Positions 12,172 to 29,094 of a DNA stretch of 64,000 nucleotides are shown here, one piece after another. The notes under the pieces are model-generated. The model saw nothing but the letters and a program-made list of their open reading frames with translations. It ran no database searches and was not told where the DNA came from. Position 1 is the stretch's first letter. Every line of letters starts with the position of its first letter. The position numbers and the translations under genes were made by a program. The DNA lies in contig OY759599.1 of assembly GCA_963662465.1 (NCBI GenBank), positions 1,856,001 to 1,920,000 of the forward strand. Reading direction: 5' to 3'. This DNA comes from Desulfatiglandales bacterium (GTDB lineage Bacteria > Desulfobacterota > DSM-4660 > Desulfatiglandales > Desulfatiglandaceae).

Positions 12172-14092
12172 CAGGGTGAATTTATTCTTCCGAATTATCC
12201 AAATAAAATATAAAAGTTGCGCTACATTATGGACAGAAACCCTCGGATGGTGTATATACTGTGACAGGCACCAAACCAATTCGGGGTTTAAATTCTTGAA
12301 CGTTAAGCAAGTCCGCATTCAAATAGTCCGCCCGCTTGAAGAACAACGCTTTCAGCATCTGATGCAGTCGCATCATTATTTGGGCGCTCTTCCCAAGATC
12401 AGCGAAACCCTCTGGTATACAGCTAGACTAAATAGTGAGTGGATTGCGCTTGTCAGTTTTTCTGCTCCCGCTTTGAAATGTACACCAAGGGACAGCTGGA
12501 TCGGATGGAATTTTCGCCATCAATACGATCGACTGAAACTGGTAACCAATAACAGTCGTTTTCTAATTTTGCCCGAATGGCATATTCCGAATCTCGCATC
12601 CCGTATCCTTTCATTATGTCGGAAGCGAATGCAGGCTGATTGGCAGGAGCGTTTCGGGCATCCGGTTGTACTCCTGGAAACCTTTGTGGACCCAAAGCAA
12701 TTCCACGGAACCGTATATCGAGCGTCTAATTGGATATATGTTGGTAAAACAAAGGGTTTTCATCGAACTCGCCAAGGCTACAGCGATAAAGCGGATTCAC
12801 CGAAAATGGTTTTTCTTAAACCATTGGTTTCCAATGTTCAAGCACTGTTATCCCGACCTGTTCTCAAAAAACCATATCTTACAGGAGGTTACAAAATCAT
12901 GCTCAGTGCGGAACATATGAAATCTCTACCCGACTTTTTTGCTCAAATTCCCGACCCGCGTCGATCCCAGGGACGACGTCACAGGCTCTCCACTGTTCTG
13001 GCCATTGCCACCGCCGCAACACTGTGCGGAATGCGCGGTTATCTGGCGATATCCGATTGGGTAAATGGTCTTGGACAAAAAGCCCTTGAGCGTTTCCGTT
13101 GCCGATATGAAAATAAGCGCTATGTAGCTCCCAGTCAGTCTACTATCCGTGATGTTCTGGTTCGCGTTGACCCCACAGAACTCGACAAAGCTCTCCAGCG
13201 TTGGAATCTGCTTTACGGTGAACAGGACGAAAGCTTGGCCATCGATGGAAAAACCATGTGTAATGCCATCGATGAACAAGGTTATCAGACTCACATCATG
13301 AGTGCTGTCGGCCATCAAACTAAGACCTGTTACACCCAAAAAAAGTCGGTTCTCTCCCTGTAGAAGGCAAAGACGAACTCAAGCGAACCAATGAAATCAA
13401 AACGGCTGCCCCTTTACTGGACGCGATCGATATCGAAGGCAAAGTCATTTCAGCTGACGCACTGCTAACCCAAAGGACTTTTGCTAAATATTTGGTCGAG
13501 CAACGCAACGCCCATTACCATTTCATCGCCAAAAACAACCAGCCCACATTACTTCAAGACATTTCCCTGTATTTTGAGGGCTGCAACGATCCTGATTTCA
13601 TACAACACGATGCTCCCGATCATGGTCGCATCGAAGTGCGCAAAATATGGACGACTACCGAACTTAACCTATACCTGGATTTCCCGTATGTCGGCCAGGC
13701 TTTTATGATCCAGAGAGAAGTTACAAACAAGAAAACCGGTAAATGCACAGTTGAGGTTGCTTACGGCATAACGAGTCAATCACCTGATCAGGCGAATCCC
13801 GAACGTGTACTTTCTATCAATCGCGGTCACTGGAGCATTGAAAACGAGTGCCATTACATCATCGACTGGAACTACGACGAAGATCGAAGCCGAATAAGAA
13901 CCGGCAATGGTCCTGAAAACATGACCAGGCTGCGTAGATTCGCGGTGGGCGTCATTAAGGCGAAAGGCGTTCGCAGTGTAGCCCAGAAAATGCGCCAGCT
14001 CACGCAGAACGTAAGGGGTGTCTTCGACTATCTCAAGATGACCAAAAATTCAGTGCCCCAAGCGTGATACCTGTTAGAACAAATTTACCGTG
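12172..14092 (+). mobile_element. Complete ISAs1-family insertion sequence (1921 bp)
   Basis: TIRs CAGGGTGAATTTATTC and revcomp CACGGTAAATTTGTTC (13/16); 10-bp TSD GCTCCTTTAC at 12162-12171 and 14093-14102. Confidence 0.92.
12296..14067 (+). CDS. DUF4338/DruA-like domain fused to ISAs1 DDE transposase, read through a -1 frameshift at about 13339-13345
   Basis: N-terminal HHYLG..RDSWIGW..NNSRFLIL..LETFVD..YRASNW; then DPRRSQGRRH, AIDGKT; the -1 frame gives TNEIK..ISADALLTQ..HGRIEVR..RGHWSIEN; start approximate. Confidence 0.85.
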
Positions 14093-14749: not shown

Positions 14750-17700
14750 CTATTTCAACAGGGCCTGATCGATGCAGGTCCTGATGGTTTCACCCACGAA
14801 TCGCACATGGGGCTCCCGGAGCATGCCCAGATGTCCGCTGGGCGCCTCAAAAACCTCAATGCCCGCCTTTGCCAGCTTGCCCCATCCCAGTTCCGGATCC
14901 ACCTCCACGCCCACGCCCAGAATTCTTTCATGACTTCGGAAAAGCACCACGCTTCCATCATATGGCCGTGGAACATAGCGCTCCATGGCATCCTTGTTGT
15001 AAGACCGGGCCCTGAAATCCCTCAGACCCGCATTTAAAGGACGTTCGGTCTTTTCATATAAATCCAGGTAGACCCTACGGATCCGGAATCCCACCAACTG
15101 AAAGGATCTTTGCAATCTTTTCATGCGCCATTTCAATTTGTTGAGGATATAGGCAGGGCCCTCATCCATAAGTGATTCCCAATGGGCTGATGCACGGCTG
15201 CCCGCGGAGGCGGATTTAACGGCGCCGGGCCCCACGGTGTCGAGTAACGTCAGAAAAGCCGTTTTTTCTCCTGATTCAAGGAGCTGTCGCGCCATTTCAT
15301 AAGCCACCATTCCTCCGAAGGAGATACCCGCCAACAGGTAAGGCCCCTCAGGCTGTATGAGACGCATCTCTTTCACATAGTGGGCGGCAAGATCTTCCAC
15401 CCGATTGGGCGTCGGCAAACGGCCTCCCAGGAGATGGACGGAAAGGCCATAAACCGGCTGGTTTTCACCCAGGTATTTGATCAGGGGCCGACAAAAATGA
15501 AGCCCGGCGCCCAGGACATGGATAAAGAACAGAGGAGGCTTCTCCCCTCCCGCCTGAATTTCGATGAGCGATTGAAAGTCTTCGGGGGTTTTGCCGCTTT
15601 CTATTTCTTGAGACAGTTTTTCAATGGTAGGCGCCTGAAAAAGGGTTTGCAGCGGAATTCTTTTGCCGATCTGATTTTCAATTTCCGAACAGAGACGAAC
15701 CGCCAGAAGAGAATGTCCGCCCAATTCAAAAAAATGATCCTGAATGCCGACCTTTGAAATTCCAAGCACGCTTTTCCATATTTCGGCCAGCTGTTTTTGA
15801 AGGGGTGTCGTCGGCGCCACAAAGGCGCTATCCATGGTTGTCGGCGCCATATGGGGGTCGGGAAGCGACCGTCGGTCCACCTTTCCATTGGGCAATCGGG
15901 GAAAAGAACCCAGCAGTACCACGTCCGATGGCACCAGATAGGAGGGGAGTTTTTGCTTTAAAAACTGCTTGAAAAAAGAAGGATCGGAAGCCGCGCCTTT
16001 TTTGGGAACCACATAGGCCGCCAAACACTTTTCTCCCCGTCGGTCCGCCCGAACGGCCACGGCGGCTTGTCCCACGGCCGGACAAAGGTGCAATGCCGCT
16101 TCAACCTCGCCCGGCTCCACGCGGAATCCCCGTATCTTGACCTGGCTGTCAAATCGGCCTATGAAATCAATTTGCCCATCCGGCAGATATCGCACACGAT
16201 CTCCGGTCCGGTAGACCCGACCGTCTTCCCTGAACGGATCCCGGATAAATTTCTTTGCGGTCAGATTGCCGCGATTGAGATAACCGCGGGCGACACCCAA
16301 CCCACCAATCAGCATTTCTCCACTCATCCCCACCGGAACCGGCTGCAGGTTTTGGTCCACCACATAGATCCGGGTATTGGCGATGGGTCGGCCGATGGAA
16401 ATTACCGCGGGCGGTTTTTCGGTGTTTTGAAGATCCGGTTCAAAGATCGTTGAAACAACGGTGGTCTCCGTGGGGCCATAGGTATTAAACCAGCGGATAC
16501 GCCCTCCCGTGTGCTTCATCCATGTGTTAAAGGCCGATTCCGAGGCTTTTTCACCGCCCACGATTACCGCACGGAGGGTCATGGGAAGCGGTTTTTGTGA
16601 ATCTGTGAGCCAATGCATCCATTCGTGCCAGAAAGCGCTGGGAAGATCCAGCACCGTAACACGGTCCTTTTCCAGCCATTCCATAAAAACATTCATTGAG
16701 GGGAGCGGATCAAAGGGCAGGAGGACCAGCGCGGCGCCCTGGGTCAAGGTCATGAAAATTTCCTCCACGGCCCCGTCAAAACTGATGGAAAAGAACTGCG
16801 CCACGCGGTCGCAAGATGCCATATTAAATCGTTCAGCCACGGCCAGTGCGTGATTCACAACTCCCTGATGCAGCACCATAACCCCCTTGGGCGTTCCCGT
16901 GGAGCCCGAAGTATAAATCACATAGGCCGTATTGCGGCCCGTCGTGCGGTGTGCGGGGTTTTCAAGGCTTTCATCATCAGCGGTTTCTCGTTCATCATTT
17001 AAAAAAATGATTTGACCGTTGAATTCACAAAGCGTCTCCTTCAAATGGGCCTGAGTTAGAACGATCGGAACATTTGAATCCTTCAGCATCGAGGCAATCC
17101 GTTCCAAAGGATATGTGGGATCCAATGGAACATAAGCGCCGCCGGCTTTCAAAATCCCCAGAATACCCGTTATCATATCAACGGACCGTTCCATGCAAAT
17201 GCCCACCAGCATTTCCGGGCCCACCCCCATTTTTTGAAGTTTCCATGCCAGCCGGTTGGCCCTAAGATTCAGTTCCCGGTAGGAAAAAGCCTTTTCACCA
17301 TGCATTACGGCAATAGCATCGGGCGTCCTGTCCGCCTTGGCCTCAAACAGGTGATGAACGCATAGATGTTCCGGAAATCCCCGGTCTGTATCGTTCCACG
17401 CCACTATCTGCCGGTGATACTCCGCATCCGTCAAGAGGGATATGTTTTTAATCGCTTGGCTTTTAGGCGCCATGAGTCGTTTCAAAAAATTGACAAATCG
17501 GTCCATCAATCCCTGTACATGGGATCGGTTGAAAACCCGGGGATCATAAGCCATACAGCATGTTTTTCCGTCTTTCGGAATTACCAACACCAGTCCCGGC
17601 CCGGGGACCGGTTCATAGCCTGAAAGATTCTCCACCCATTCAACCGCCGCGGCAAAGGGATGATTTTCCCGCCGCGGGGTTTTCCAGTCAAGGGCCGGAT

Positions 17701-20700
17701 ATCGCGCCGTCAGATCCCGTGCAAAGGTTTTCCTTCGGATGGTTTGATCGATTTCATATTGAAGGGTTTCCCTGAAATCCTTAAATGAAGCATCCCCGCC
17801 CACTTGGACGCGTAATGGGACATACGGCGCAAAAAATCCCTCCAGCCCGGACATGTTTTGAGAAAGGCCATGGTATCTGAAACCCAAATCAAAAGTCGAT
17901 ATTTGACAAAAACGGGCCAGAAAGGCTGAAAAAGCGGCGATAACCAGAAGGGGCGCCCTCCCAATATCCTTTTCCGGGGCCGGGTCTACAATCCGGGCGG
18001 TAATGGTTGTGAATTTCGGGTCTTGATCATCGTTTCGGCCAACGTCGATATTGCTTGCAGGGGCAGACCTGTGTGTCTGCCCAGTAAAGGACGAACACAC
18101 AGGTTCGCCCCTACATTGGCAGCCGAGCTGAAGCGGCCTCAGATCAGTCATTTTACCGACCCAATAAGCCTCATATGGGGATATTTCGGCATTCAATGTG
18201 CTCAGTGAAACCGCAATGGCCGGATCCAGGTTCGGCAATCGTTTCCCCACGGAAAGGCCGGAATCCGCAATCCATTGGGAAAGGGTCAGAGGGGCGCCAT
18301 CAATGGTTTTTAATGATTGTACCGCCAGATCGCCCAACCCCGTTGCCAGGACCAGGGACCTTTCATTGGCAGCAACGATGGTTCCGGCCTCTTTTCCGGA
18401 ATTGTCGTCGAGAAGGGCGGTTTTGGAAACGATGACAAAATCGTGGTTTAAGGCGATCTTGGCATATCCCAACGGGTTGTCATAATTCCCGAAATCAAGC
18501 GCCCTTACCAGCGCATCGATGTCGCTTGCATTGCCGCGCCAGGAGATGACGCCCCCGGCCGGAGGCCTTTGATAAAGGGCATAATAGGTCCGTCTGGCCA
18601 GGTCCTGGGGATAAAAGGCCGTTTTGTTTTCAAGAAAATTTTCCACAAGAACATCAAAGCACCGAACCGCCGCTTCATAGCATTTGGCGTTAAGGGTGAG
18701 CGATGTCTCATTGGAATCAATTTGAAACATCTCCTGCTGCAAAATGTCGCCCGTATCCACCCCTTCCGCTGCCACATGCCAGGTAATCCCATGGTTTTTT
18801 TCACCATTCATGATGGCCCAGGCCGTGGCATGAATGCCGGCATACCTGGGCAGGGGAGAATCATGATAGTTAACGGCGTATCGCCGCGGCAGATTCAGCA
18901 CTGACGGCGCGAGTACATGACTGTTGACAATACTGAAAAGGTAATCAAAAGAGCAGCCCTCCATATGGACGGCCATATTTTTGTCAGGTTTGAAAACGGG
19001 GATATCTCTTTTGAATGCCCATTGATGGTTTTCTTCATCCGGGGAAATCATGCCGCAAATGGTGCAGCCTTTTTTCAATAAGATTTCCCCGCATTGAAGC
19101 GGCAGAGACCCTTCCCCGATGATGAAACAACTGAAGCCTTCGTGTGGAATCCGAGGCTTGACGCCATCAGTCTTGTTGAAAAAGCGGGTCCGGATATGGG
19201 ACAAAGGAAGGTTCGGATTCTCCAGGATCCCTGCCGTAACCCATTTTAAATCTTCAGCCATTCCTTTTATGACATTCGCATCAAACAGGTCCCGGTTGTA
19301 TTCAAACCATCCTTCCAGCCGATTTCCTCGTTCTTCCAGGTTCAGTAAAATATCGACCTTGGCCGTGCCATTGCCCACCTCTTCATAAGTCCATGTTGTG
19401 TTCGATGATGTGATGGCGGCGGGAGGCGTATTCTGCAGGATGAACAGGATCTGAAAGATGGGATTTCGGCTGGTATCCCGCTCCAGGGCCAGGGCCTCCA
19501 GCAGTTTTTCAAATGACATATTCTGGTGGTCGTAAGCCTCGATAGCGGTTTGACGAACCCGTTTCAGTAAAGTTTTAAAACCGGGATCACCGGAGAGGTC
19601 CGTTCGCATGACCAGTGAATTGATGAAAACACCGATAATTTTTTCCAGTTGCGGGTGATTTCGGTTGGCAATTGTGGAACCGACAATAACATCCGTTTCA
19701 CGGGTGTATGTGAAAAGAAGGGCTTTAAATGCGGAAAGCATTACCATGAAAAGCGTGGCATTTTCGTTTCGCGCCAGCGCCTTCAGGGCCGCTGTTGTTT
19801 TTTCTGAAAAATCCAGGTGATGCCTGGCCCCCGCAAAGGTTTGAAATCGAGATCTCGAATGGGCCATGGGAAGATTCAGCTCGGCCCGCGGTCCTTTGAG
19901 TTTATTTTTCCAATACGCCGTCTGATTTCTGATTTCCGGACGTTCAAGCTGTTTTCTCTGCCACAGAACAACGTCGCCGTACTGAATGGGCGGCGTGCTT
20001 TCAGAAAGCACCCCTCCGCGAACGAGTGCATGGTAAGCGTCGTACAGTTCCGAAAAAAAAAGGCTTGCGCCCCAGCCGTCTATGAGGATGTGGTGTATGG
20101 TAAAGACCAATTGATGATCAAATGGATTTATACACACCAGGACCGCCTTCATCAACGGCGGTTTGGAAAGGTCAAATGGATAAGCGCCGACCTCCCTTAA
20201 GATGCCTGCCAATTTCTTTTCGCGCTGAGATATGGACATCGCCGACCCATCCACCAGCGGTATACGAAAAGAGGAATTTCCATGTACGTTCTGTAACAAT
20301 TGCGTGTCGGTCATGGAAAAGGAGGTGCGCAGGATCTCGTGTTTTTTTATCATGAAATGAAAGGCATCATGAAGCTTGCTCGGATTCAACGGACCTTTCA
20401 TATGAATGTTCAACGGGATATTGAAAAGGATTCCCTGCTCATCCATCTGATGTAGCAGCCAGATCCCTTTTTGCGCATAGGACACCGGAAATTTTCGACG
20501 AGAGCCCTGGAAATGAGAAATGGGATCACCAAAACCGGAATCCGTCGCCCGATGTCCCGCCATAAGACTTTCCGCCAACTCAGCAACAGTAGGGCCGTCA
20601 AAAAAGGTTTTCAGGGAAATTTCCACGTTCATGTTTTTTGAAATGGTCGAACAAACACGGGTCGCCAGGAGGGAATGACCGCCCAGGTCAAAAAAATTAT

Positions 20701-22408
20701 CGTTAATGCCGACGCGATGGATCCCCAGCACCTGTTGAAAGATTTCGGCCAGCGCTTTTTCAATTTGGGATTTCGGCGGTACATAGGGCGTATGGTTCAG
20801 CGTCATCAGATCATTGGGATCAGGCGCCGGCAAAATGTCCCGATCCGTCTTGCCGTTGGGCGTGGTGGGCATTTGATCCAACCGGACAAAAACCGACGGC
20901 GCCATGTATTCCGGCAGAAATTTTTTCGAAAAATCCCTGAGTTCCCCGAACGATGCAATATTGTTTTCCATAAAGACCACATACGCAACCAGTCGTTTGA
21001 AACCCGGATCATCTTCGCGCAACAGAACCGTTGCCTCCCGAACGGCTGGGTGGGAACGAAGCAGGGTCTCAATTTCACCCAGCTCAATGCGGTAGCCGTG
21101 AAATTTAACCTGAAAATCCCGTCGACCCATAAACATAAGATTCCCGTCCGGAAGCAACCGGGCCATGTCCCCTGTTTTGTAAACCCGCGCGCCGGAATCC
21201 TTTGAGAAAGGGTCAGGCCGAAACCGCTCGGCGGTCAATTGGGGCCGATTGAGATATCCGAGCGCCACACCGGTTCCGCCAATCCATATTTCGCCCGGAT
21301 CACCCTCGGAAACCGGTTGCCCATTGCTATCCACAAGGTAAACCCACATGTGACGCACCGGCTTTCCGATGGGGACATTTTCGTGCGGTTCATTTTCGGG
21401 ACCCACACCATAGAGGGTGGCGCAAACCGTGGTTTCCGTGGGCCCGTAGCCGTTTATGATTTGCAGGTCCCGGACGTTTTCGCTGATGCTGTCAAGCAGG
21501 ATTTCCTGAATCGGTTCCACCCCCACCAGCAAACGCCTGAGGGTACATTTATCAGGATTTTTCTTGATCCAGACATCCAAATCCGTCAGCATCATGGGGG
21601 GCAGGTAGGCACTGGTCACCCGCAGTCCATATAACCATTCCATAAGAGCCGGCGCATCGGTTCGAACCGGTTCGGGCGTCATGACCAAGGCGGCGCCCGC
21701 CGTCAGGGTTGAAAAAATTTCATAAACCGACACATCGAAATTGAGACTGGTCCACCAACTGCCTAGGTCCCCTTCTCCGATGGGTTTTCGATCTTGAAAA
21801 TCCATCAGCAGATTCATAACCCCTTTGTGATGGCAACAAACGCCCTTGGGTTGTCCGGTTGACCCGGACGTGTAGATTACGTAGGCAGGTTCGTCGGAGG
21901 CAACGGAAATATGGGGCATACTTGTGGGTTCCTGACCGATTTCCGCCACCCGGGTATCCAGAAACAGGCATTCAGTTTTTAACTCTTTGAAGTTGTCTGA
22001 AAAATCGGAATGGCTGAGAACCAGGGGCATCTTGCTGTCTTCCGCCAGGTAAGCAATGCGCTCGGCGGGATAGGTCGCATCCAGGGGAAGATAAGCGCCT
22101 CCCGACTTGAGAACGCCCAGGATGGCAACGATCAAGTCAGGCGTGCGCCCCATGCCGATGCCCACCGGACCCTGGGATTTAACAATACCCATATGCCGAA
22201 GATAATGTGCCAGTTGATTGGATCGGTGGTGAAGTTCTTGGTAAGTTAAGACGTCATTTTCAGATATGACGGCAATTTCATTGGAGAACTGACGTGCGCA
22301 TTTGGAGAAACATTCGTGAATAAGGTATTTTTCAGCGTCGGTTTCTTCATTTCCCATAGTTTGCTCCAGAGGATTGGGGCGGCCATCATTTCGAGGATCA
22401 CCTTTCAT
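14750..22408 (-). CDS. Nonribosomal peptide synthetase A-T-C-formyltransferase-(degenerate C-like)-A-T-TE
   Basis: Two YTSGSTG/YGPTE A domains, two LGGHSL carriers, HHILIDG C domain, NYHDSPLPRYAG/GITWH/DTGDI formyltransferase, GISFGG TE; the true start may be 22357 (GGAG RBS). Confidence 0.95.
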   Translation of the reverse strand: MKGDPRNDGRPNPLEQTMGNEETDAEKYLIHECFSKCARQFSNEIAVISENDVLTYQELHHRSNQLAHYLRHMGIVKSQGPVGIGMGRTPDLIVAILGVLKSGGAYLPLDATYPAERIAYLAEDSKMPLVLSHSDFSDNFKELKTECLFLDTRVAEIGQEPTSMPHISVASDEPAYVIYTSGSTGQPKGVCCHHKGVMNLLMDFQDRKPIGEGDLGSWWTSLNFDVSVYEIFSTLTAGAALVMTPEPVRTDAPALMEWLYGLRVTSAYLPPMMLTDLDVWIKKNPDKCTLRRLLVGVEPIQEILLDSISENVRDLQIINGYGPTETTVCATLYGVGPENEPHENVPIGKPVRHMWVYLVDSNGQPVSEGDPGEIWIGGTGVALGYLNRPQLTAERFRPDPFSKDSGARVYKTGDMARLLPDGNLMFMGRRDFQVKFHGYRIELGEIETLLRSHPAVREATVLLREDDPGFKRLVAYVVFMENNIASFGELRDFSKKFLPEYMAPSVFVRLDQMPTTPNGKTDRDILPAPDPNDLMTLNHTPYVPPKSQIEKALAEIFQQVLGIHRVGINDNFFDLGGHSLLATRVCSTISKNMNVEISLKTFFDGPTVAELAESLMAGHRATDSGFGDPISHFQGSRRKFPVSYAQKGIWLLHQMDEQGILFNIPLNIHMKGPLNPSKLHDAFHFMIKKHEILRTSFSMTDTQLLQNVHGNSSFRIPLVDGSAMSISQREKKLAGILREVGAYPFDLSKPPLMKAVLVCINPFDHQLVFTIHHILIDGWGASLFFSELYDAYHALVRGGVLSESTPPIQYGDVVLWQRKQLERPEIRNQTAYWKNKLKGPRAELNLPMAHSRSRFQTFAGARHHLDFSEKTTAALKALARNENATLFMVMLSAFKALLFTYTRETDVIVGSTIANRNHPQLEKIIGVFINSLVMRTDLSGDPGFKTLLKRVRQTAIEAYDHQNMSFEKLLEALALERDTSRNPIFQILFILQNTPPAAITSSNTTWTYEEVGNGTAKVDILLNLEERGNRLEGWFEYNRDLFDANVIKGMAEDLKWVTAGILENPNLPLSHIRTRFFNKTDGVKPRIPHEGFSCFIIGEGSLPLQCGEILLKKGCTICGMISPDEENHQWAFKRDIPVFKPDKNMAVHMEGCSFDYLFSIVNSHVLAPSVLNLPRRYAVNYHDSPLPRYAGIHATAWAIMNGEKNHGITWHVAAEGVDTGDILQQEMFQIDSNETSLTLNAKCYEAAVRCFDVLVENFLENKTAFYPQDLARRTYYALYQRPPAGGVISWRGNASDIDALVRALDFGNYDNPLGYAKIALNHDFVIVSKTALLDDNSGKEAGTIVAANERSLVLATGLGDLAVQSLKTIDGAPLTLSQWIADSGLSVGKRLPNLDPAIAVSLSTLNAEISPYEAYWVGKMTDLRPLQLGCQCRGEPVCSSFTGQTHRSAPASNIDVGRNDDQDPKFTTITARIVDPAPEKDIGRAPLLVIAAFSAFLARFCQISTFDLGFRYHGLSQNMSGLEGFFAPYVPLRVQVGGDASFKDFRETLQYEIDQTIRRKTFARDLTARYPALDWKTPRRENHPFAAAVEWVENLSGYEPVPGPGLVLVIPKDGKTCCMAYDPRVFNRSHVQGLMDRFVNFLKRLMAPKSQAIKNISLLTDAEYHRQIVAWNDTDRGFPEHLCVHHLFEAKADRTPDAIAVMHGEKAFSYRELNLRANRLAWKLQKMGVGPEMLVGICMERSVDMITGILGILKAGGAYVPLDPTYPLERIASMLKDSNVPIVLTQAHLKETLCEFNGQIIFLNDERETADDESLENPAHRTTGRNTAYVIYTSGSTGTPKGVMVLHQGVVNHALAVAERFNMASCDRVAQFFSISFDGAVEEIFMTLTQGAALVLLPFDPLPSMNVFMEWLEKDRVTVLDLPSAFWHEWMHWLTDSQKPLPMTLRAVIVGGEKASESAFNTWMKHTGGRIRWFNTYGPTETTVVSTIFEPDLQNTEKPPAVISIGRPIANTRIYVVDQNLQPVPVGMSGEMLIGGLGVARGYLNRGNLTAKKFIRDPFREDGRVYRTGDRVRYLPDGQIDFIGRFDSQVKIRGFRVEPGEVEAALHLCPAVGQAAVAVRADRRGEKCLAAYVVPKKGAASDPSFFKQFLKQKLPSYLVPSDVVLLGSFPRLPNGKVDRRSLPDPHMAPTTMDSAFVAPTTPLQKQLAEIWKSVLGISKVGIQDHFFELGGHSLLAVRLCSEIENQIGKRIPLQTLFQAPTIEKLSQEIESGKTPEDFQSLIEIQAGGEKPPLFFIHVLGAGLHFCRPLIKYLGENQPVYGLSVHLLGGRLPTPNRVEDLAAHYVKEMRLIQPEGPYLLAGISFGGMVAYEMARQLLESGEKTAFLTLLDTVGPGAVKSASAGSRASAHWESLMDEGPAYILNKLKWRMKRLQRSFQLVGFRIRRVYLDLYEKTERPLNAGLRDFRARSYNKDAMERYVPRPYDGSVVLFRSHERILGVGVEVDPELGWGKLAKAGIEVFEAPSGHLGMLREPHVRFVGETIRTCIDQALLK
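18056..18115. repeat. GTAG-type REP doublet lying inside the NRPS reading frame
   Basis: tgcaggggcagacctgtgtgtctgccc-agtaa-aggacgaacacacaggttcgcccctaca, two inverted hairpins. Confidence 0.8.
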
Positions 22409-22684
22409 TGGATCATAACGTGGTGCGGAACGCCGGGGACATCTAGTCGGACTAATCTTGGCATGGAACTTCTATTATCAGCATATTAACATCATGTCAA
22501 ATTAGTTGCTTAGTTGTGGACGTCCCCAACCTGTTCAACACATTTTTTGCACACGATTTGATGTTTTCTTCCTTTCACACTAAAGTTTTTCATCCGTTTG
22601 TCGATATTCCCACCAACAGGATGGGATCACGCACACGCCCGATTCCATAATTCAAATCCATTAATTTTTTTAGGGAGGATTCAC

Positions 22685-23176
22685 ATGAAGTATTTGGCAA
22701 TGGTTCTGGCAGTTTGTTTTTGCATTATTTCCGGTGGTACAATATGGGCTGAAGAGGACAAAGCCTCGGTTGAAGACGTTTATGACTTGGTGCTTAAAGC
22801 CCACAGCGTTGTCAGCAACCTGGGTGAAGAAGGGCTGGTCGCATTCAACGACCCCAAGGGGGAATTTGTATATAAAGACACCTACGTATTTGTTGAAAAA
22901 TGCCCCGAATATGTGGTGGCTCACCCTTTTGCTTTGGATAAACTGAAAGGAAAAGATTTGAGGCCCATTTATCCTCACCAGAATACCCTTTGCGAAGGAG
23001 CCAAGGATCCCAACGGCACCTGGGTGGAATACCAATGGCCCAAACCGGGGGAAACAAAACCTTCCCGGAAAATCGCTTTTATCATTCAGGTGGAGGGCAC
23101 ACCCTATGCCGTGATCGCCTCTATCTATAACGATGATATATCCATTGATGATCTGAACGCAAAAACAAAGAAATAA
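22685..23176 (+). CDS. Secreted stand-alone single Cache-domain protein
   Basis: Signal peptide; FNDPKGEFVYKDTYVF, AHP, WVEYQWPKPG...RK; GGAGG RBS. Confidence 0.85.
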   Translation: MKYLAMVLAVCFCIISGGTIWAEEDKASVEDVYDLVLKAHSVVSNLGEEGLVAFNDPKGEFVYKDTYVFVEKCPEYVVAHPFALDKLKGKDLRPIYPHQNTLCEGAKDPNGTWVEYQWPKPGETKPSRKIAFIIQVEGTPYAVIASIYNDDISIDDLNAKTKK

Positions 23177-23219
23177 CGGGCAGATAGTCGCTCATCGCAA
23201 TTTCATGCCTAAATTGGGG

Positions 23220-23254
23220 CAGGAGAGAAAAATTACGCATTCTCTCCTGTTTTC
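23220..23254 (+). terminator. Rho-independent terminator
   Basis: caggagagaa ... ttctctcctg followed by ttttt. Confidence 0.65.
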
Positions 23255-23257
23255 AGT

Positions 23258-23410
23258 CTTTGGGTTACTCGGTTGACCCGTACGTGTAGATTACGTAGGC
23301 CGGTTCGTCAGGGGCAGTGGAAAGCCCCCAGAGTCATAGAGGCGGAAGCCACCCCCACACCCGTAACTCCCAGGATCGCCACACGCCCTCCCATGGCGCC
23401 CACAAACCAC
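23258..23410 (-). pseudogene. Decayed fragment of an NRPS adenylation domain
   Basis: 23258-23323 aligns with 21843-21908 and reads PDEPAYVIYTYGSTE*PK; VAILGV is encoded nearby. Confidence 0.75.
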
Positions 23411-23500
23411 GGGACCCCGACCACACGACCTTTCATCGGGCACGCGTTGTTTCACGCAATTGGAGAATCTTGCAAAAAAGAGAAAGCGGTTTTTGTCGTC

Positions 23501-24154
23501 TTAGAAGTAAAATTGAACACCCAGTTGAACCGCATGGGTTTGGATGGCATCTCCGCGCAGGGGGATCCCCCCTGTCTCATAATCCTGTTCGCCCAGTCCC
23601 ATGAAACGGTAGCCCAGAGAAAACCGCCATGCGTCCGTCAAGGCGTAAGAAACACCGGTCATGACTTTATAGATGAAAAGCGTGTTATGACCATGGGTGG
23701 GAGGAAAACCGGCCAGCGTAATGTCGTTAGCCGTAAAACGGGCGCCGCCCAAACCTGCCCCCACATAGGGTCTGAATTTCGTTCCGGTGGGAATATCGTA
23801 ATAAAAATTGGCCGTACCCCCCCACATATCATAGTAACCCGAAACATCACCGCCGCCACCTGAAAAGCGTACATAATCCGCATTGCTGCGCCCGTACAGA
23901 ACTTCTCCCTCGATCCGAAAGTCACCATATCGGTAGCCCAGGCCGCCGGAAATGTCCCAGCCCGTTTCAGCTCTGGTACTTCCCGATGAAAGTACGGGGG
24001 AACTGGTATCCACGGAAAAAGGGAATACCACGGAAGGACTGAATGAGACATAGAAACCGGGTTTCGACGTTATCTCAGGGCCTTCATCAGCCCATAAAAC
24101 CCCTGCCATGAACAACCCAAAGACGCCCGAAATGACACATGCCAAGATTTTCAA
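23501..24154 (-). CDS. Outer-membrane beta-barrel protein (8-strand, OmpA/Opa-like)
   Basis: Signal peptide; GLGYRY, FRPYVGAGLG; terminal aromatic QFYF. Confidence 0.88.
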   Translation of the reverse strand: MKILACVISGVFGLFMAGVLWADEGPEITSKPGFYVSFSPSVVFPFSVDTSSPVLSSGSTRAETGWDISGGLGYRYGDFRIEGEVLYGRSNADYVRFSGGGGDVSGYYDMWGGTANFYYDIPTGTKFRPYVGAGLGGARFTANDITLAGFPPTHGHNTLFIYKVMTGVSYALTDAWRFSLGYRFMGLGEQDYETGGIPLRGDAIQTHAVQLGVQFYF

Positions 24155-24185
24155 AACTCACACCTCGATTTTTTACAATCGTTTA

Positions 24186-24250
24186 CAGGGTGCAGAGTGC
24201 GGGGTGCAGAAAAATCAGCTTCGATTTTCATCCTGCCCCCTGCCCCCTGT
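24186..24250. repeat. Heptamer-repeat inverted structure
   Basis: (GGGTGCA)-like units followed by (CCTGCCC)-like units. Confidence 0.5.
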
Positions 24251-24487
24251 GAAATCAATTCCAACCTGGATGTCGATAGCACAATTTCCATTTTTCATCA
24301 AGAATCAATGGTCGAAATCGGTTAAACCGCGGATTGATCGAAAAGATGTTTCGCAAACTATAATATAATTGATTAACAGGCTGATTTATAGTAGAAAAAG
24401 GGAATGTCAACCATTTATTCCGGGCTCAAATGCCATCAATGGCATACAAACCGGAAACCCTGAACCGGATTTGAACAGGAGACGGCA

Positions 24488-24805
24488 ATGGTAGAGAAAG
24501 ACCAACAGGAGTGGTACAAAAAATTTTACGAAGGAACGTTTCTGGTTCAAGGCTGGAAATCCCGCATCAAAGAGATCCTTAAGGGCCTGTCAACCGAAGA
24601 CAAAAAGGAAATGGGGGAACTGCTGGAAAACCTCGGGAAAAAAATCGGCATGGAATGGGCCAGGGACAATGACGTCCGAAAAATCAACACATCACAACTT
24701 CAACAGTGGGGAAAGGACCTTCAAAAGGCCGGAAAAACCGGGTCCGCGGCACTGGCCAAACAGATCCGGCAACTGGATGAAGAGGTGGATCGTCGGCTTG
24801 CGTGA
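24488..24805 (+). CDS. Hypothetical protein
   Basis: 105-aa ORF with AGGAG RBS. Confidence 0.7.
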   Translation: MVEKDQQEWYKKFYEGTFLVQGWKSRIKEILKGLSTEDKKEMGELLENLGKKIGMEWARDNDVRKINTSQLQQWGKDLQKAGKTGSAALAKQIRQLDEEVDRRLA

Positions 24806-24934: not shown

Positions 24935-26599
24935 ATGATAAACAATGAAACCCTTATGGCGGCATTGATGGGGATCTTAAGACCTTCCAATGCCGGGAAA
25001 CCAACGCTTTCCACCATGCGCCGTCGGACATTGAAACTGCTTAAAGAAGCCAAGGCCTCGGGAATGTTGGAAGATTTGGTCCGCCAGGTAGTATTGACAA
25101 CGGGCATCGAATCGTTTCTGCCCCAGCGCTACGCTAAATATCAACCGGTGGTGCGGGAAGGGATGATTTTTATGATGTCAGCGCTGCCCCTTTCGCGACT
25201 GGCCGATAAAATCGTCGACCAATTGCGCCTTTCCGAAGACGCTCCTTTCGGATGTCGTCTTTTTACATTGATCAAAGACATGCCCACGCTTCAGAAACTG
25301 GGTCAGATTATCTGCCGGAGCCCAGGCCTAGCGCCGGCCATGAAAAATGCCCTCATCGATCTGGAGGACAACATTCAAACCCTGTCCTATTCCCAGATTC
25401 GCCCGGCCCTGTTCAAGGAAATTGAAAAGCGCACGCCCCGCAATCGGATCATCCCTGAAAAACGCATCCTGGCCGAAGCCTCGGTCTGCGCGGTGATCCC
25501 CGCGCAGATCGCTTCAGGCAATCAAAAGAGAACAAGCCGGGCGGTGTTAAAAATCGTCAAACCCAGGGTCAAAAAGGATATGGCCGCGGATCTGGCGCTT
25601 CTGGAACGTCTCATGGAATTTCTGGACCAAAACAAGGGGGACTGGGATTTAGGGGATTTCAATTTCAGCGCAACCCTGGCACAGGTGGGCGTCCTGCTGG
25701 CCAATGAGGTAAATCTGGCAAGCGAACAGAAAAACATCGATTGCGCAGGGTACCATTTCAGGGACAATGCCATGGTGGTGATCCCCGAAAGACTTTCCGT
25801 GTCCACCCCGGGCATGACCGCCATGACACGGGTGGAAGGAAAAAAAATAACGGACGTGGCGCACCTGACGAAAAAACAGCGGCGAAAACTGGCCGGCGCA
25901 CTGGCCGAAACCTGCATCCTGCATCCCATCCAGGACATTCGCGAGGGGGGGCTTTTTCACGGAGACCCCCACGCCGGCAATCTGGCCTATACCTTCGAAA
26001 AAGGACGTCCCCGTCTCATCTTTTACGACTGGGGAATGCTTGGACGCCTGAACAAACTGGAACGGTTCGCCATGATCCTGCTCACCCTGGGACTCATGGC
26101 AAAAAGCGCCAATCTCGTCTTCTACACAGCGGACATTATCACAAAGGGGCAGCTTTCCGCCAATCCCGTCATGCGTAAAACCATCAAGCGCATTATCGAA
26201 GAAGGCATTGACTTGCAAAGCCGGGGGACCAACGGGATACTGGGTTCCATCGAATTTTTATTTGAGAAATTCACCCATGAGGGGGTCGTCTTTTCAGCGA
26301 ATCTGATGATGTATGAAAAGGCCATGGTGACCCTCAAAGGCGTGCTGTCCGACGTGGATTCCACCTTCAACCGGGATGCCTACATGATCCGGGCGGCAGT
26401 CGTATCCCTGATGGATGATGCCATTCGCTTCCGGCTTCTCAAACTTTTCATGAAAGAGGCCTGGTCTCTGTATCGCCACAGCCTGGGCCTTTTCTTTGAT
26501 CTTCAAAAGGTAGTCTACTGGTTCATGATGGACCTGGCCCGAATCTCCCGAAAAATCCCGGATGTGTTTTCCAACACACCGGCGCCGGCGCCGGCTTAA
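24935..26599 (+). CDS. ABC1/AarF/UbiB-family atypical kinase
   Basis: PTLQKLGQ, AEASV, VLKIVKP, FHGDPHAGN, YDWGM. Confidence 0.9.
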   Translation: MINNETLMAALMGILRPSNAGKPTLSTMRRRTLKLLKEAKASGMLEDLVRQVVLTTGIESFLPQRYAKYQPVVREGMIFMMSALPLSRLADKIVDQLRLSEDAPFGCRLFTLIKDMPTLQKLGQIICRSPGLAPAMKNALIDLEDNIQTLSYSQIRPALFKEIEKRTPRNRIIPEKRILAEASVCAVIPAQIASGNQKRTSRAVLKIVKPRVKKDMAADLALLERLMEFLDQNKGDWDLGDFNFSATLAQVGVLLANEVNLASEQKNIDCAGYHFRDNAMVVIPERLSVSTPGMTAMTRVEGKKITDVAHLTKKQRRKLAGALAETCILHPIQDIREGGLFHGDPHAGNLAYTFEKGRPRLIFYDWGMLGRLNKLERFAMILLTLGLMAKSANLVFYTADIITKGQLSANPVMRKTIKRIIEEGIDLQSRGTNGILGSIEFLFEKFTHEGVVFSANLMMYEKAMVTLKGVLSDVDSTFNRDAYMIRAAVVSLMDDAIRFRLLKLFMKEAWSLYRHSLGLFFDLQKVVYWFMMDLARISRKIPDVFSNTPAPAPA

Positions 26600-26607
26600 A
26601 ACGCGCT

Positions 26608-27462
26608 TTACTTCCCTGGGGCATCATCCTCAATATAGGATAACACCCGATTAAAGGTCGGCCCATGATAAAGGGCGCCCATGTGACCCAGGGGAACTGT
26701 TTGTTCCCGAATCCATCCTTCGGGCGGCATCAAGGATTCCGGGGGAAGGACCATATTGTCCACCGGAGAATAGAAGGCAACGCATGGCAGGTTGGTAACG
26801 GGCTTAAAATTTTCCAATTCCCTGATCAAAGGACTCCGGTAGCGCAAACTGTCGGCCAGTAAGCCCAGGCCGAACACCACCATTTTGCTCCCCTTATAAG
26901 GCGATGCAAGGGTAATCACTCGCCGAATTCCGGAAGATGGAGATGCCTCCCGCTTGCCCGCATAGGTTTTAGCCAGAAGCCCACCCATGCTGTGGCCCAC
27001 CATCACAAGATCTTCTCCGGCGCAGTCCCGTTCCACCCGGGCCATCCATGTTTCCAGTTTTTCATAAATATCCCAAAAAGTATTGTTCCAACTGTTGTAA
27101 GTAAACGCATAGATTCGACCGTACCCCTTGCGCCTCAACCGCCATCGGTAAAAGACCCATGCGCCGGCATTGTGATATAGCCCGTGGATCAAAACCACCG
27201 GTGGACCTTTTTTGGGATCTTTGGGATTTGGCCACCATGGTTTTTTGATAAAACCCAGCGGAAAAAGACATACCGCCACAATATTACAGCAGATACTGGA
27301 TAAAAGGCCCCTCAACAGCCACCAAAACGGTTTTTCCTTTGATGCCCGCTCAAGCGTCCTTCCATAGGGAGAATTGGCCGCTTCATACCAGAAAATCAGG
27401 TAAGCAACCGTGGGTATGAGCAAAAAAACAACCATTAGAATAAGCAGAATGATACTTGACAT
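26608..27462 (-). CDS. Membrane-anchored alpha/beta-hydrolase (lipase/esterase-like)
   Basis: PVVLIHG, GHSMGG, DNMV, GH. Confidence 0.88.
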   Translation of the reverse strand: MSSIILLILMVVFLLIPTVAYLIFWYEAANSPYGRTLERASKEKPFWWLLRGLLSSICCNIVAVCLFPLGFIKKPWWPNPKDPKKGPPVVLIHGLYHNAGAWVFYRWRLRRKGYGRIYAFTYNSWNNTFWDIYEKLETWMARVERDCAGEDLVMVGHSMGGLLAKTYAGKREASPSSGIRRVITLASPYKGSKMVVFGLGLLADSLRYRSPLIRELENFKPVTNLPCVAFYSPVDNMVLPPESLMPPEGWIREQTVPLGHMGALYHGPTFNRVLSYIEDDAPGK

Positions 27463-27569
27463 AAAGGACCCCTTATAAAATAAAATTCATTTATTTCAAA
27501 AACTTAAATCCGTTAAAAAAACAAACGACCACAACGCGACAACCTCGCTGAAAAAAAACGACAAAGTTC

Positions 27570-27597
27570 TTGACAAAATGACGCACTGCGTTATATT
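27570..27597 (+). promoter_or_regulatory. sigma70 promoter with palindromic operator ATGACGC-N3-GCGTTAT
   Basis: TTGACAAAATGACGCACTGCGTTATATT in the divergent lipase/phasin intergenic region. Confidence 0.8.
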
Positions 27598-27669
27598 GAA
27601 GTCAACACCACGGCGAGACAAACCGATAATGGACACCCTATGACGATATTCTTCAGGAGGTATTTTAAA

Positions 27670-28278
27670 ATGACCGCAACTAAAGAGATTACCAAAAAAC
27701 AGCCAAAAAAAACAGAAAAAAAGGCGGAATCCCGCTTTCATGCAATCCGATCCCTACACAAAACCAGGGAAAACTGGATCGAAACGGTCAAAGGCTACAA
27801 TGAGAAATATATTACGAAACCTTTTGAAAACAGCAAGGACTTTGTTGTGGACATGAAAAATGATCCAAAAAAGGCCTTTGAGAGCCTTTTCGATAATGGA
27901 AAAGACTTTGTTCAGGATTTAAAGAAAGACCCAAAAAAGGCATGGAAAGACTTGGCGGACGGGAGCAAGAATCTGACCGGGGACGCCAGAAAAAGCTTTC
28001 TTAAAGCGGTGGACAATGTTCGGGACAGCGGCAAGGATTTTTACGCCGGCTTGGGCAAAGACGCGCAAAACATCCTGGATGACTTTGTTGACCGGGGGAA
28101 AAAAATCGCCGATCGGATCCCCGGCAAAAACACCCTGGAAAAAGGGCTGTCCAAGAGCCTTGAATCAATTCCTGATCGTTTGAATTTACCTAGCAAAAAG
28201 GACATGGAAAAACTCTCAAAAACCGTACGAACCCTGAATGCAAAGCTGAACACCCTGAGCAAAAAATGCGCTGCCTGA
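27670..28278 (+). CDS. Phasin-like amphipathic helical (granule-associated) protein
   Basis: Helical repeats and C-terminal RLNLPSKKDMEKLSKTV..L, typical of PhaF/PhaI-like proteins; AGGAGG RBS. Confidence 0.65.
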   Translation: MTATKEITKKQPKKTEKKAESRFHAIRSLHKTRENWIETVKGYNEKYITKPFENSKDFVVDMKNDPKKAFESLFDNGKDFVQDLKKDPKKAWKDLADGSKNLTGDARKSFLKAVDNVRDSGKDFYAGLGKDAQNILDDFVDRGKKIADRIPGKNTLEKGLSKSLESIPDRLNLPSKKDMEKLSKTVRTLNAKLNTLSKKCAA

Positions 28279-28383
28279 TGGTCCTCCGATCTTCAGACAG
28301 ACCCTCAAAAGGCTGCCCTGAAGAAAGGAAGGTCTCTGATTTCAAGAAAACCCCTAAATGCCAAGTGAACCTCGGAGGCAGTC

Positions 28384-29094
28384 ATGCACAAAATCAAACG
28401 ATATGCGAATCGCAAACTCTATGACACAACCAACAAGAAATATATTACCCTGGATAAAATCTCAAAACTGCTCAAGGCAGGCGAAGAGGTATCGGTTATG
28501 GATAATGAAACCGGTGAAGATATAACAGAGGCCACAATTTCCCAAATTCTCGCTCGGACCCAAAAAGGGCAAACAGACAATGCCGCGGCCAACGTCATGA
28601 TACAGCTCCTCCGGAAAGGTCCCGGCACGCTGGTGGACTACGGGAAGAAGTATGTCTCATTATGGGATCGGGCACTCACCATGGCCGATGAGGAAATCGA
28701 CAGGCTGGTTGAAAGGCTGGTGAAAGAAAAAGAGATTACGCCATCCGAGGGAAGCAAACTCAAAAAAGACATGCTGAGCCGTGCGGACGACCTGAAGAAA
28801 TGGATTGCGGAAAAAATAGATCAGAGGCTCAGCGAAGCCCTTGATCTCATGAATTTGGCCAGCAAGGACCAGGTTTCCCAACTCACTTCGAAAATAGACG
28901 CCTTGACCCTAAAAGTGCGGAAGCTGGAAAAAAAGCTGTCCCAAAAGGCCAAAGAAGAAAAAGCCCGGGAGGAGGCGGATCAGCTTAAACAAGAGGCCCA
29001 AATAAAAGTGATCCCCCTAAACAAGGAAGATCTCAAACCGGTAATGGCGCCTGAACTCCCCGAGCAGGAAGCAGCAAGTGATGTGCTTCTGTAG
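28384..29094 (+). CDS. PhaR-like PHA-regulator DNA-binding domain fused to a phasin-like region
   Basis: IKRYANRKLYDT...YITL...DNETGEDIT; C-terminal MNLASKDQVSQLTSKIDAL. Confidence 0.85.
   Translation: MHKIKRYANRKLYDTTNKKYITLDKISKLLKAGEEVSVMDNETGEDITEATISQILARTQKGQTDNAAANVMIQLLRKGPGTLVDYGKKYVSLWDRALTMADEEIDRLVERLVKEKEITPSEGSKLKKDMLSRADDLKKWIAEKIDQRLSEALDLMNLASKDQVSQLTSKIDALTLKVRKLEKKLSQKAKEEKAREEADQLKQEAQIKVIPLNKEDLKPVMAPELPEQEAASDVLL

Follow-up and report, generated by a model that had tools for sequence, protein, structure and literature searches.

Passages of two reviews (PMC10510592, PMC8949500) place formylation (F) domains that act in cis in initiation modules only, and one of the two relates this position to the fact that formylation blocks the amine. 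F-initiated systems named in the passages seen are anabaenopeptilide and kolossin (PMC8949500), with discodermin and calyxamide as products with formyl starters (PMC12858407); we liken these to the present locus by description. The F domain of the two-module NRPS described here resembles that of the LgrA initiation module (F-A-T; PDB 5ES5-5ES9, 6MFZ) in its formyltransferase fold and its Asn-x-His...Asp (N-H-D) motif in cis with A-T (sequence match E 2e-10; fold matches), and in its predicted donor, N10-formyl-THF, as given for LgrA in a review passage. The two differ in position and surroundings: F of LgrA is N-terminal, about 190 aa long and directly before A, whereas here F comes after A1-T1 and an intact C domain, is followed by an Fmt/ArnA-like C-terminal subdomain (Fc) and a half-C remnant (Cx), and stands before a Lys-type A domain. 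Homologues that start with F share this F-Fc-Cx-A-T unit (33-46% identity across the module among the matches listed), but in them it initiates the chain and its substrates, as predicted from the codes, are varied.

Formyl groups are also placed on internal Orn or Lys residues by PvdF, TerH and their relatives (TerH: PMC7497119), but these are trans-acting enzymes that modify an N-hydroxylated amino acid ahead of its loading, whereas F here is part of the synthetase itself and the genome search gave no full-length N-hydroxylase. The Lys modules of myxochelin MxcG and amonabactin AmoF are close to A2 in their code, and a passage of PMC8949500 describes attachment of Gly to the side chain of Lys in amonabactins, which gives a precedent for an NRPS acylating a Lys side chain; unlike the present NRPS, these systems are described in the passages seen with aryl or Gly donors, with siderophore products and with no formyltransferase domain. 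In the open literature we found neither an internal F domain nor a formyl-Lys installed by an NRPS, including in the available parts of PMC10212144, PMC3207962, PMC12858407, PMC12426817, PMC10628113 and PMC6689883; subscription papers, cluster databases and supplements could hold one. Matches to 'formyl-Lys' were set aside as anabaenopeptin-type entries, CO-monomer annotation cases or nocobactin trans-formylation. We take the CO monomer of such entries to be a ureido CO.

We tentatively propose C-F-Fc-Cx-A(Lys)-T as an undescribed class of NRPS branching module that recurs, having been put together on at least two independent occasions (in anaerobes, and in cyanobacteria and others), and in which on-line N-alpha-formylation would serve as a built-in protecting group redirecting an ordinary C domain to the epsilon-amine of Lys; such a module would be a potential portable isopeptide part. 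The C-F family breaks the positional rule for F yet would obey the chemical one, the exception being predicted only where the substrate has two amines. NRPS logic would gain from it either a formyl-directed isopeptide step or the first in-cis side-chain formylation. The predicted products of some 30 clusters would have to be corrected, and anaerobes, of whose products we found no report, would offer a small single-gene test system.

Domain organization and substrate codes

The window (the whole stretch of 64,000 nucleotides analysed) contains the NRPS gene as a stop-free ORF of 2552 aa, called in the database as P0002 from Met18 (2535 aa). Pfam and motif mapping gave the order A1-T1-C-F-Fc-Cx-A2-T2-TE with intact catalytic motifs. 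The preliminary description had read this order from the sequence, with F and Fc as one domain and Cx as a degenerate C-like stretch, and had given the C motif HHILIDG and an F domain at about 18250-19140 (F plus Fc occupy 19135-18239). The Pfam matches were two AMP-binding, two PP-binding, Condensation (638-1073), Thioesterase, Formyl_trans_N (1162-1248, E 3.5e-19) and Formyl_trans_C (1286-1381). The protein thus has the features of a C-A-T-TE unit, namely an intact HHxxxDG C domain, a T serine and a TE triad, but C does not directly adjoin A2: about 600 aa of F-Fc-Cx lie between them, with the half-C remnant before A2. In ureido-forming NRPS of the SylC/AptA type the C-domain motif is EHHxxHDG; IHHILIDG is found here instead, and a ureido-forming reading was rejected on this ground.

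Table 1. Features of the NRPS gene, with positions in the window and residues of the 2552-aa ORF.
Feature	Window position	Strand	Residues (aa)	Details
Two-module NRPS gene	14750..22408	-		Pfam + ORF
A1 adenylation domain	20849..22321	-	30-520	predicted Met code DVYYLGGVCK; position 302 is Val
T1 carrier domain	20564..20776	-		Ser579
Condensation domain, intact	19184..20497	-	638-1075	HHILIDGWG at aa 772
Formyltransferase core (F)	18554..19135	-	1092-1285	N1180-H1182-D1218
Fc, formyltransferase C-terminal subdomain	18239..18553	-	1286-1390	PF02911, Fmt/ArnA-like
Cx, C-terminal lobe remnant of C domain	17429..18211	-	~1400-1660	without HHxxxDG
A2 adenylation domain	15869..17356	-	1685-2180	code DGEDIGTVVK, Lys predicted
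T2 carrier domain	15593..15811	-		Ser2233
Thioesterase	14774..15547	-		Ser2363-Asp2390-His2526
Palindromic genomic repeat in Fc-Cx linker	18022..18117			in frame with NRPS gene

F-Fc matched ArnA, sugar N-formyltransferases, Fmt and the F domain of LgrA among PDB sequences. The N-H-D triad, whose catalytic role we assume from GART/Fmt enzymology, was retained in 15/15 C-F proteins aligned. In close pairs dN of the F core was 0.04-0.10, which ranks it with the best-conserved domains, and that of Cx, the least conserved, was 0.16-0.25. The dN/dS ratio of the F core, about 0.04-0.2 in family pairs with measurable dS, was as low as that of the A domains, so that purifying selection acts on F and on the A domains with equal strength. 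Cx segments matched the C profile only at positions ~190-437 (156 of the 204 such segments with a match), HHxxxDG lying at 134; in this NRPS itself the profile match is weak (E 0.002 and 0.016). Cx is also present in N-terminal F-Fc-Cx-A starters. The 'degenerate C-like stretch' of the preliminary description is thus C-like as stated but, judged from these alignments, corresponds to the C-terminal lobe alone and belongs to an ancestral F-Fc-Cx-A starter unit. An alignment-based model of F-Fc-Cx-A2-T2, which leaves out the C domain, had pLDDT 89.8 and pTM 0.84, with C-A containing NRPS fragments and LgrA as best fold matches; a single-sequence prediction (pLDDT 35) was not used. At the linker repeat the protein exceeds its orthologues by about 21 aa, and the loop there is disordered in the model; the repeat, which we take to be REP-like, has 32 short blastn matches in the genome and two near-full copies at 94-96%.

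Our code extraction reproduced known codes in other modules (e.g. DILQLGMIWK, DLYNLSLIWK, DAWFLGNVVK) and returned for A2 the code that had been aligned by eye, including its likeness to Lys (9/10), Orn (8/10) and Arg (6/10) types. The Lys matches at 9/10, as listed in the supplement of PMC12283262, were Lys(4)/Lys(12), i.e. DAEDIGTVVK of MxcG and AmoF and DGEDHGTVVK of pyoverdine Lys modules; Orn(7) DGEDHGTVTK is two changes away and Arg(3) DAEDIGAITK four. The best single-domain PDB match of A2 was ApnA A1. The A1 code is 9/10 identical to the Met(2) code of ZmaQ (DVFYLGGVCK), in a reference list with three Met codes only. A1 is thus predicted to load Met and A2 to load Lys.

A misassembly at the C-F junction, which the preliminary description would have taken as refuting its reading, was rejected, since orthologues that are 42-50% identical to the protein across aa 980-1680 share its layout and junction. 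In run X1 a contig of identical sequence spans the junction (18028-24500), X1 possibly being the source sample and hence not independent; the contigs of X3, X4 and X6 did not bridge it among the pieces listed.

Lysine codes and origins of C-F modules

A search with aa 980-1680 gave 762 matches, of which the best 120 were used, together with two locus scans (best 80 of 551 and best 80 of 154 confirmed matches); the sample is drawn by similarity to this NRPS, and distant exceptions may be missing from it. Removal of near-duplicates left 247 of 284 F modules. The code tally leaves uncounted three proteins with F after A, two open-ended ORFs and one other, as well as 54 modules whose code was not readable (52 N-terminal, 2 C-F). 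Among the matches listed, all 31 non-redundant readable C-F modules have a Lys/Orn-type code, against 3/156 N-terminal F modules with a narrow code pattern, fitted after the C-F codes had been seen, or 15/156 with a broad one (acidic-239, acidic-or-Asn-278). Codes behind N-terminal F are varied: Gly, Ala, Cys, Ser, Asn, Pro and others. A Fisher p-value on these counts ignores kinship and was not used; an independent-pairs test gave four pairs on well-supported branches, three concordant and one uninformative (p 0.25, not significant).

A single C-F clade was rejected by AU tests on 46 and 41 hand-picked rows, run without a mixture model, in the F tree (p-AU 0.0009) and the C tree (p-AU 1.5e-61), respectively. 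In the A tree C-F modules fall in at least two groups, with the anaerobe family apart from cyanobacterial-type modules. Because domain shuffling inflates origin counts, we limit the claim to this: by these trees, C-F modules appear to have arisen at least two times. N-terminal F-A(Lys) starters exist (L065, P0048, P0053), L065 being sister to the internal P0089 (support 96), which fits an origin in which A-T-C was fused onto a starter of this kind. The internal F of L010 is close to the starter F of L022 (branch lengths 0.14 each), and the C domains before F in cyanobacterial modules are related to those of ordinary elongation modules (P0014 pairs with L018 at support 100, and P0089 with a paralogue of its own at 99), with no sign in the tree of adaptation to an epsilon-amine. 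The residue comparison found no universal new signature in internal F or C domains, which is consistent with unchanged F chemistry. Partial substitutions are nevertheless shared: P at 1195 in 13/30 internal against 5/205 starter F domains (this NRPS has T1195) and S at 1236 in 15/30 against 7/205, which could mean a changed F acceptor.

The complete layout with Met-type A1 and Lys-type A2 was found in at least 12 other proteins (P0004, P0005, P0065, L004, L005, L020, L030, L031, L047, L086, L088, L089), so that the layout is that of a conserved family. The named records are Desulfobacterium, Desulfocicer vacuolatum, Kiritimatiellales, Pontiellaceae and Verrucomicrobiota; the layout is shared between Desulfobacterota and Kiritimatiellota/Verrucomicrobiota. 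L006 and P0026 are incomplete, cut-off members, and L084/P0003 and P0009 have an extra Gly module. The C domains of the family form one 17-row clade (support 100), and in the tree that of the present NRPS lies outside the DCL group. At L110:5405-19475, two tandem paralogues with non-Met A1 codes and deviating T2 motifs (DIDSLS, GVDSLS) adjoin a periplasmic binding protein (PF01497) and an ABC ATPase.

The gene is sporadic in its class: genome surveys (E<=1e-30) gave matches in at least 2 of 209 genomes of the class and at least 1 of 41 relatives, its own genome included, and the sole other match has an N-terminal F. A profile search of C-F-Cx against 50% representatives returned mostly giant multi-C proteins, with F in 2/150 (P0003, P0139), and a search for longer proteins gave two matches among 197 candidates, covering the 4467-5000 aa range only. 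In P0092, P0119 and P0100 an internal F is arranged differently, in that it follows an A domain immediately and without an intervening T; in P0092 and P0119 the A domain before F has a Dab- or Orn-like code, the Dab label being our own assumption. A large set of single-module F-Fc-Cx-A-T-TE proteins (P0023-P0121, many loci), whose codes include Gly, Ala and Cys types, would yield N-formylated amino acids as products; the one at L096 adjoins glycosyltransferase and WbqC genes.

Candidate products and their rivals

The product is likely to be a formylated Met-Lys, and F probably modifies a Lys amine on T2, either N-alpha or N-epsilon. The gene may well encode a stand-alone dipeptide synthetase that makes N-alpha-formyl-Lys with Met on N-epsilon, although this reading is a tentative one. 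It would have been born by fusing A-T-C ahead of an F-Fc-Cx-A(Lys)-T starter. The single Sfp-type PPTase of the genome would prime the T domains in trans, A1 and A2 would load T1 and T2 with the predicted Met and Lys, and F, keeping its ancestral job, would formylate the alpha-amine of Lys-S-T2 with N10-formyl-THF. C would then move Met onto the remaining epsilon-amine to give an isopeptide, and TE would release N-alpha-formyl-N-epsilon-methionyl-lysine (C12H23N3O4S, [M+H]+ 306.148). MxcG, for its part, reportedly performs a double acylation of Lys. The three main candidate products are isomers with the same computed [M+H]+ of 306.148. T2 follows F-Fc-Cx-A2 exactly as in N-terminal starters, so the species bound to it would be the inherited substrates of F, and the N-alpha-formyl reading, which we favour over its rivals, needs no change in F. 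A C-F fusion with a one-amine substrate would be a dead end, which would explain why Lys-type modules alone are found behind C-F; the second amine is the likely reason for the persistence of such fusions. The suggestion that a diamino acid on T2 is formylated on one amine and acylated on the other is supported by the comparison, A2 being one change from Lys codes and 31/31 C-F modules among the matches listed being Lys/Orn-type. The fusion of an A-T-C unit to an F-A-T starter, originally offered as its alternative, is the likely origin and is compatible with it. The Met-type A1, which opens the route to fMet-Lys, the ancestral Cx, the conserved family and the PPTase in trans go beyond the preliminary description. 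We count against the N-alpha-formyl reading that T2 must reach a C domain displaced by about 600 aa, that the cyanobacterial C domains before F are ordinary, that some internal F domains share substitutions, that the independent pairs number only four and that the sample is biased by similarity.

The same Lys link would be accounted for equally well if a normal alpha-peptide Met-Lys were built on T2 and F served as in-cis side-chain tailoring, giving Met-Lys(N-epsilon-formyl). The ordinary-looking elongation C domains of C-F modules outside the anaerobes and the partial substitutions of some internal F domains speak for this reading, as do stand-alone lysine formyltransferases such as TerH, which acts on hydroxy-Lys (PMC7497119, passage). 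F would, however, have to gain epsilon and lose alpha activity at each origin, despite the closeness of L010 and L022 and without a universal internal-F signature, and we consider this reading unlikely, though a serious contender. The Met-type A1 code conserved across the family and the resemblance of F to methionyl-tRNA formyltransferase would rather suit formylation of the free Met amine, on Met-Lys-S-T2 or Met-S-T1, giving fMet-Lys as a formyl-peptide mimic. That product is improbable: it leaves the constant Lys-type A2 unexplained, it is inapplicable to the acyl-started cyanobacterial clusters, two L110 members of the same C clade have non-Met A1 codes, and likeness to Fmt is general to NRPS F domains according to a review passage.

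It is quite improbable that the substrate of A2 is Orn, Arg or modified Lys, or that TE hands the formylated dipeptide over to a sugar or to an acceptor on the cell surface rather than to water. The Orn(7) and Arg(3) codes cited above and the ApnA A1 match leave room for another substrate, but a modified Lys finds no full-length Lys/Orn monooxygenase in the genome, where the one match is partial and non-specific. Transfer would agree with the Cys-TE and the PPTase, GT2 and GT4-like genes of four Kiritimatiellota/Verrucomicrobiota loci and with the glycosyltransferase or DegT genes beside several cyanobacterial clusters; the TE of the present protein, however, is a Ser-TE, its gene has no glycosyltransferase next to it among the neighbours scanned, and the neighbours of the Desulfobacterota orthologues differ. 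Finally, the retention of the adjacent, catalytically dead Cx would allow F to be an inactive fusion relic kept as a scaffold, with plain Met-Lys or a cyclic form as product. This is very improbable indeed, as the triad is intact in all aligned members, the F core ranks near the top in conservation and Cx at the bottom, and a relic would not require Lys.

Gene neighbourhoods

In the cyanobacterial C-F clusters (L007, L009, L010, L011, L018, L019, L032, L039, with L043 added) the chain starter is mostly an acyl-CoA-ligase-like A-T, as in each of the first eight. The acyl-started clusters often adjoin an isocitrate-lyase-family gene, replaced at L007 by an oxalyl-CoA-decarboxylase-like gene, and several C-F clusters adjoin glycosyltransferase or DegT genes. 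As an acyl starter has no N-terminal amine, F there should act on Lys. Judged by its motif the starter is possibly oxalyl, and the products may be oxalyl-capped, formyl-Lys peptides.

Neighbours differ among the Desulfobacterota orthologues, and no conserved neighbour pointing to a biological role was found across the family loci scanned. In L020, L047, L086 and L088 (Kiritimatiellota/Verrucomicrobiota), Cys replaces the TE Ser, Fc-Cx is shortened, and a divergent PPTase lies in an operon with GT2 and GT4-like genes (Pfam run on L020 only).

The present gene is flanked by an ISAs1-like element, an unannotated 174-aa ORF, a Cache protein, a porin-like protein, an ABC1 kinase and PHA-regulator-like genes; among the neighbours scanned there is indeed no PPTase, MbtH, tailoring or exporter gene. 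The genome has one Sfp-size PPTase, away from this locus, and a search of the whole genome for MbtH found none. A formyl-hydroxamate siderophore pathway was rejected because neither Lys/Orn N-monooxygenase nor iron uptake genes occur among the neighbours and the one genome match is partial (E 1.3e-5), to a monooxygenase family that scores in 12/14 control genomes.

Promoter and terminator scans around the gene were at chance level; TTGACA-N15-GATAAT lies upstream at 22500-22474 (-), with a spacer shorter than the promoter scan permits. ABC1 kinase and PHA-regulator-like genes are located upstream of the NRPS gene both in the window (24935-29094) and in the Desulfobacterium orthologue (L004:2923-6769), in a different arrangement. 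The ISAs1-like element (12172-14092) consists of a DruA-like + DDE_Tnp_1_assoc ORF and a second ORF, and has 11 other full-length copies in the genome at >=99%.
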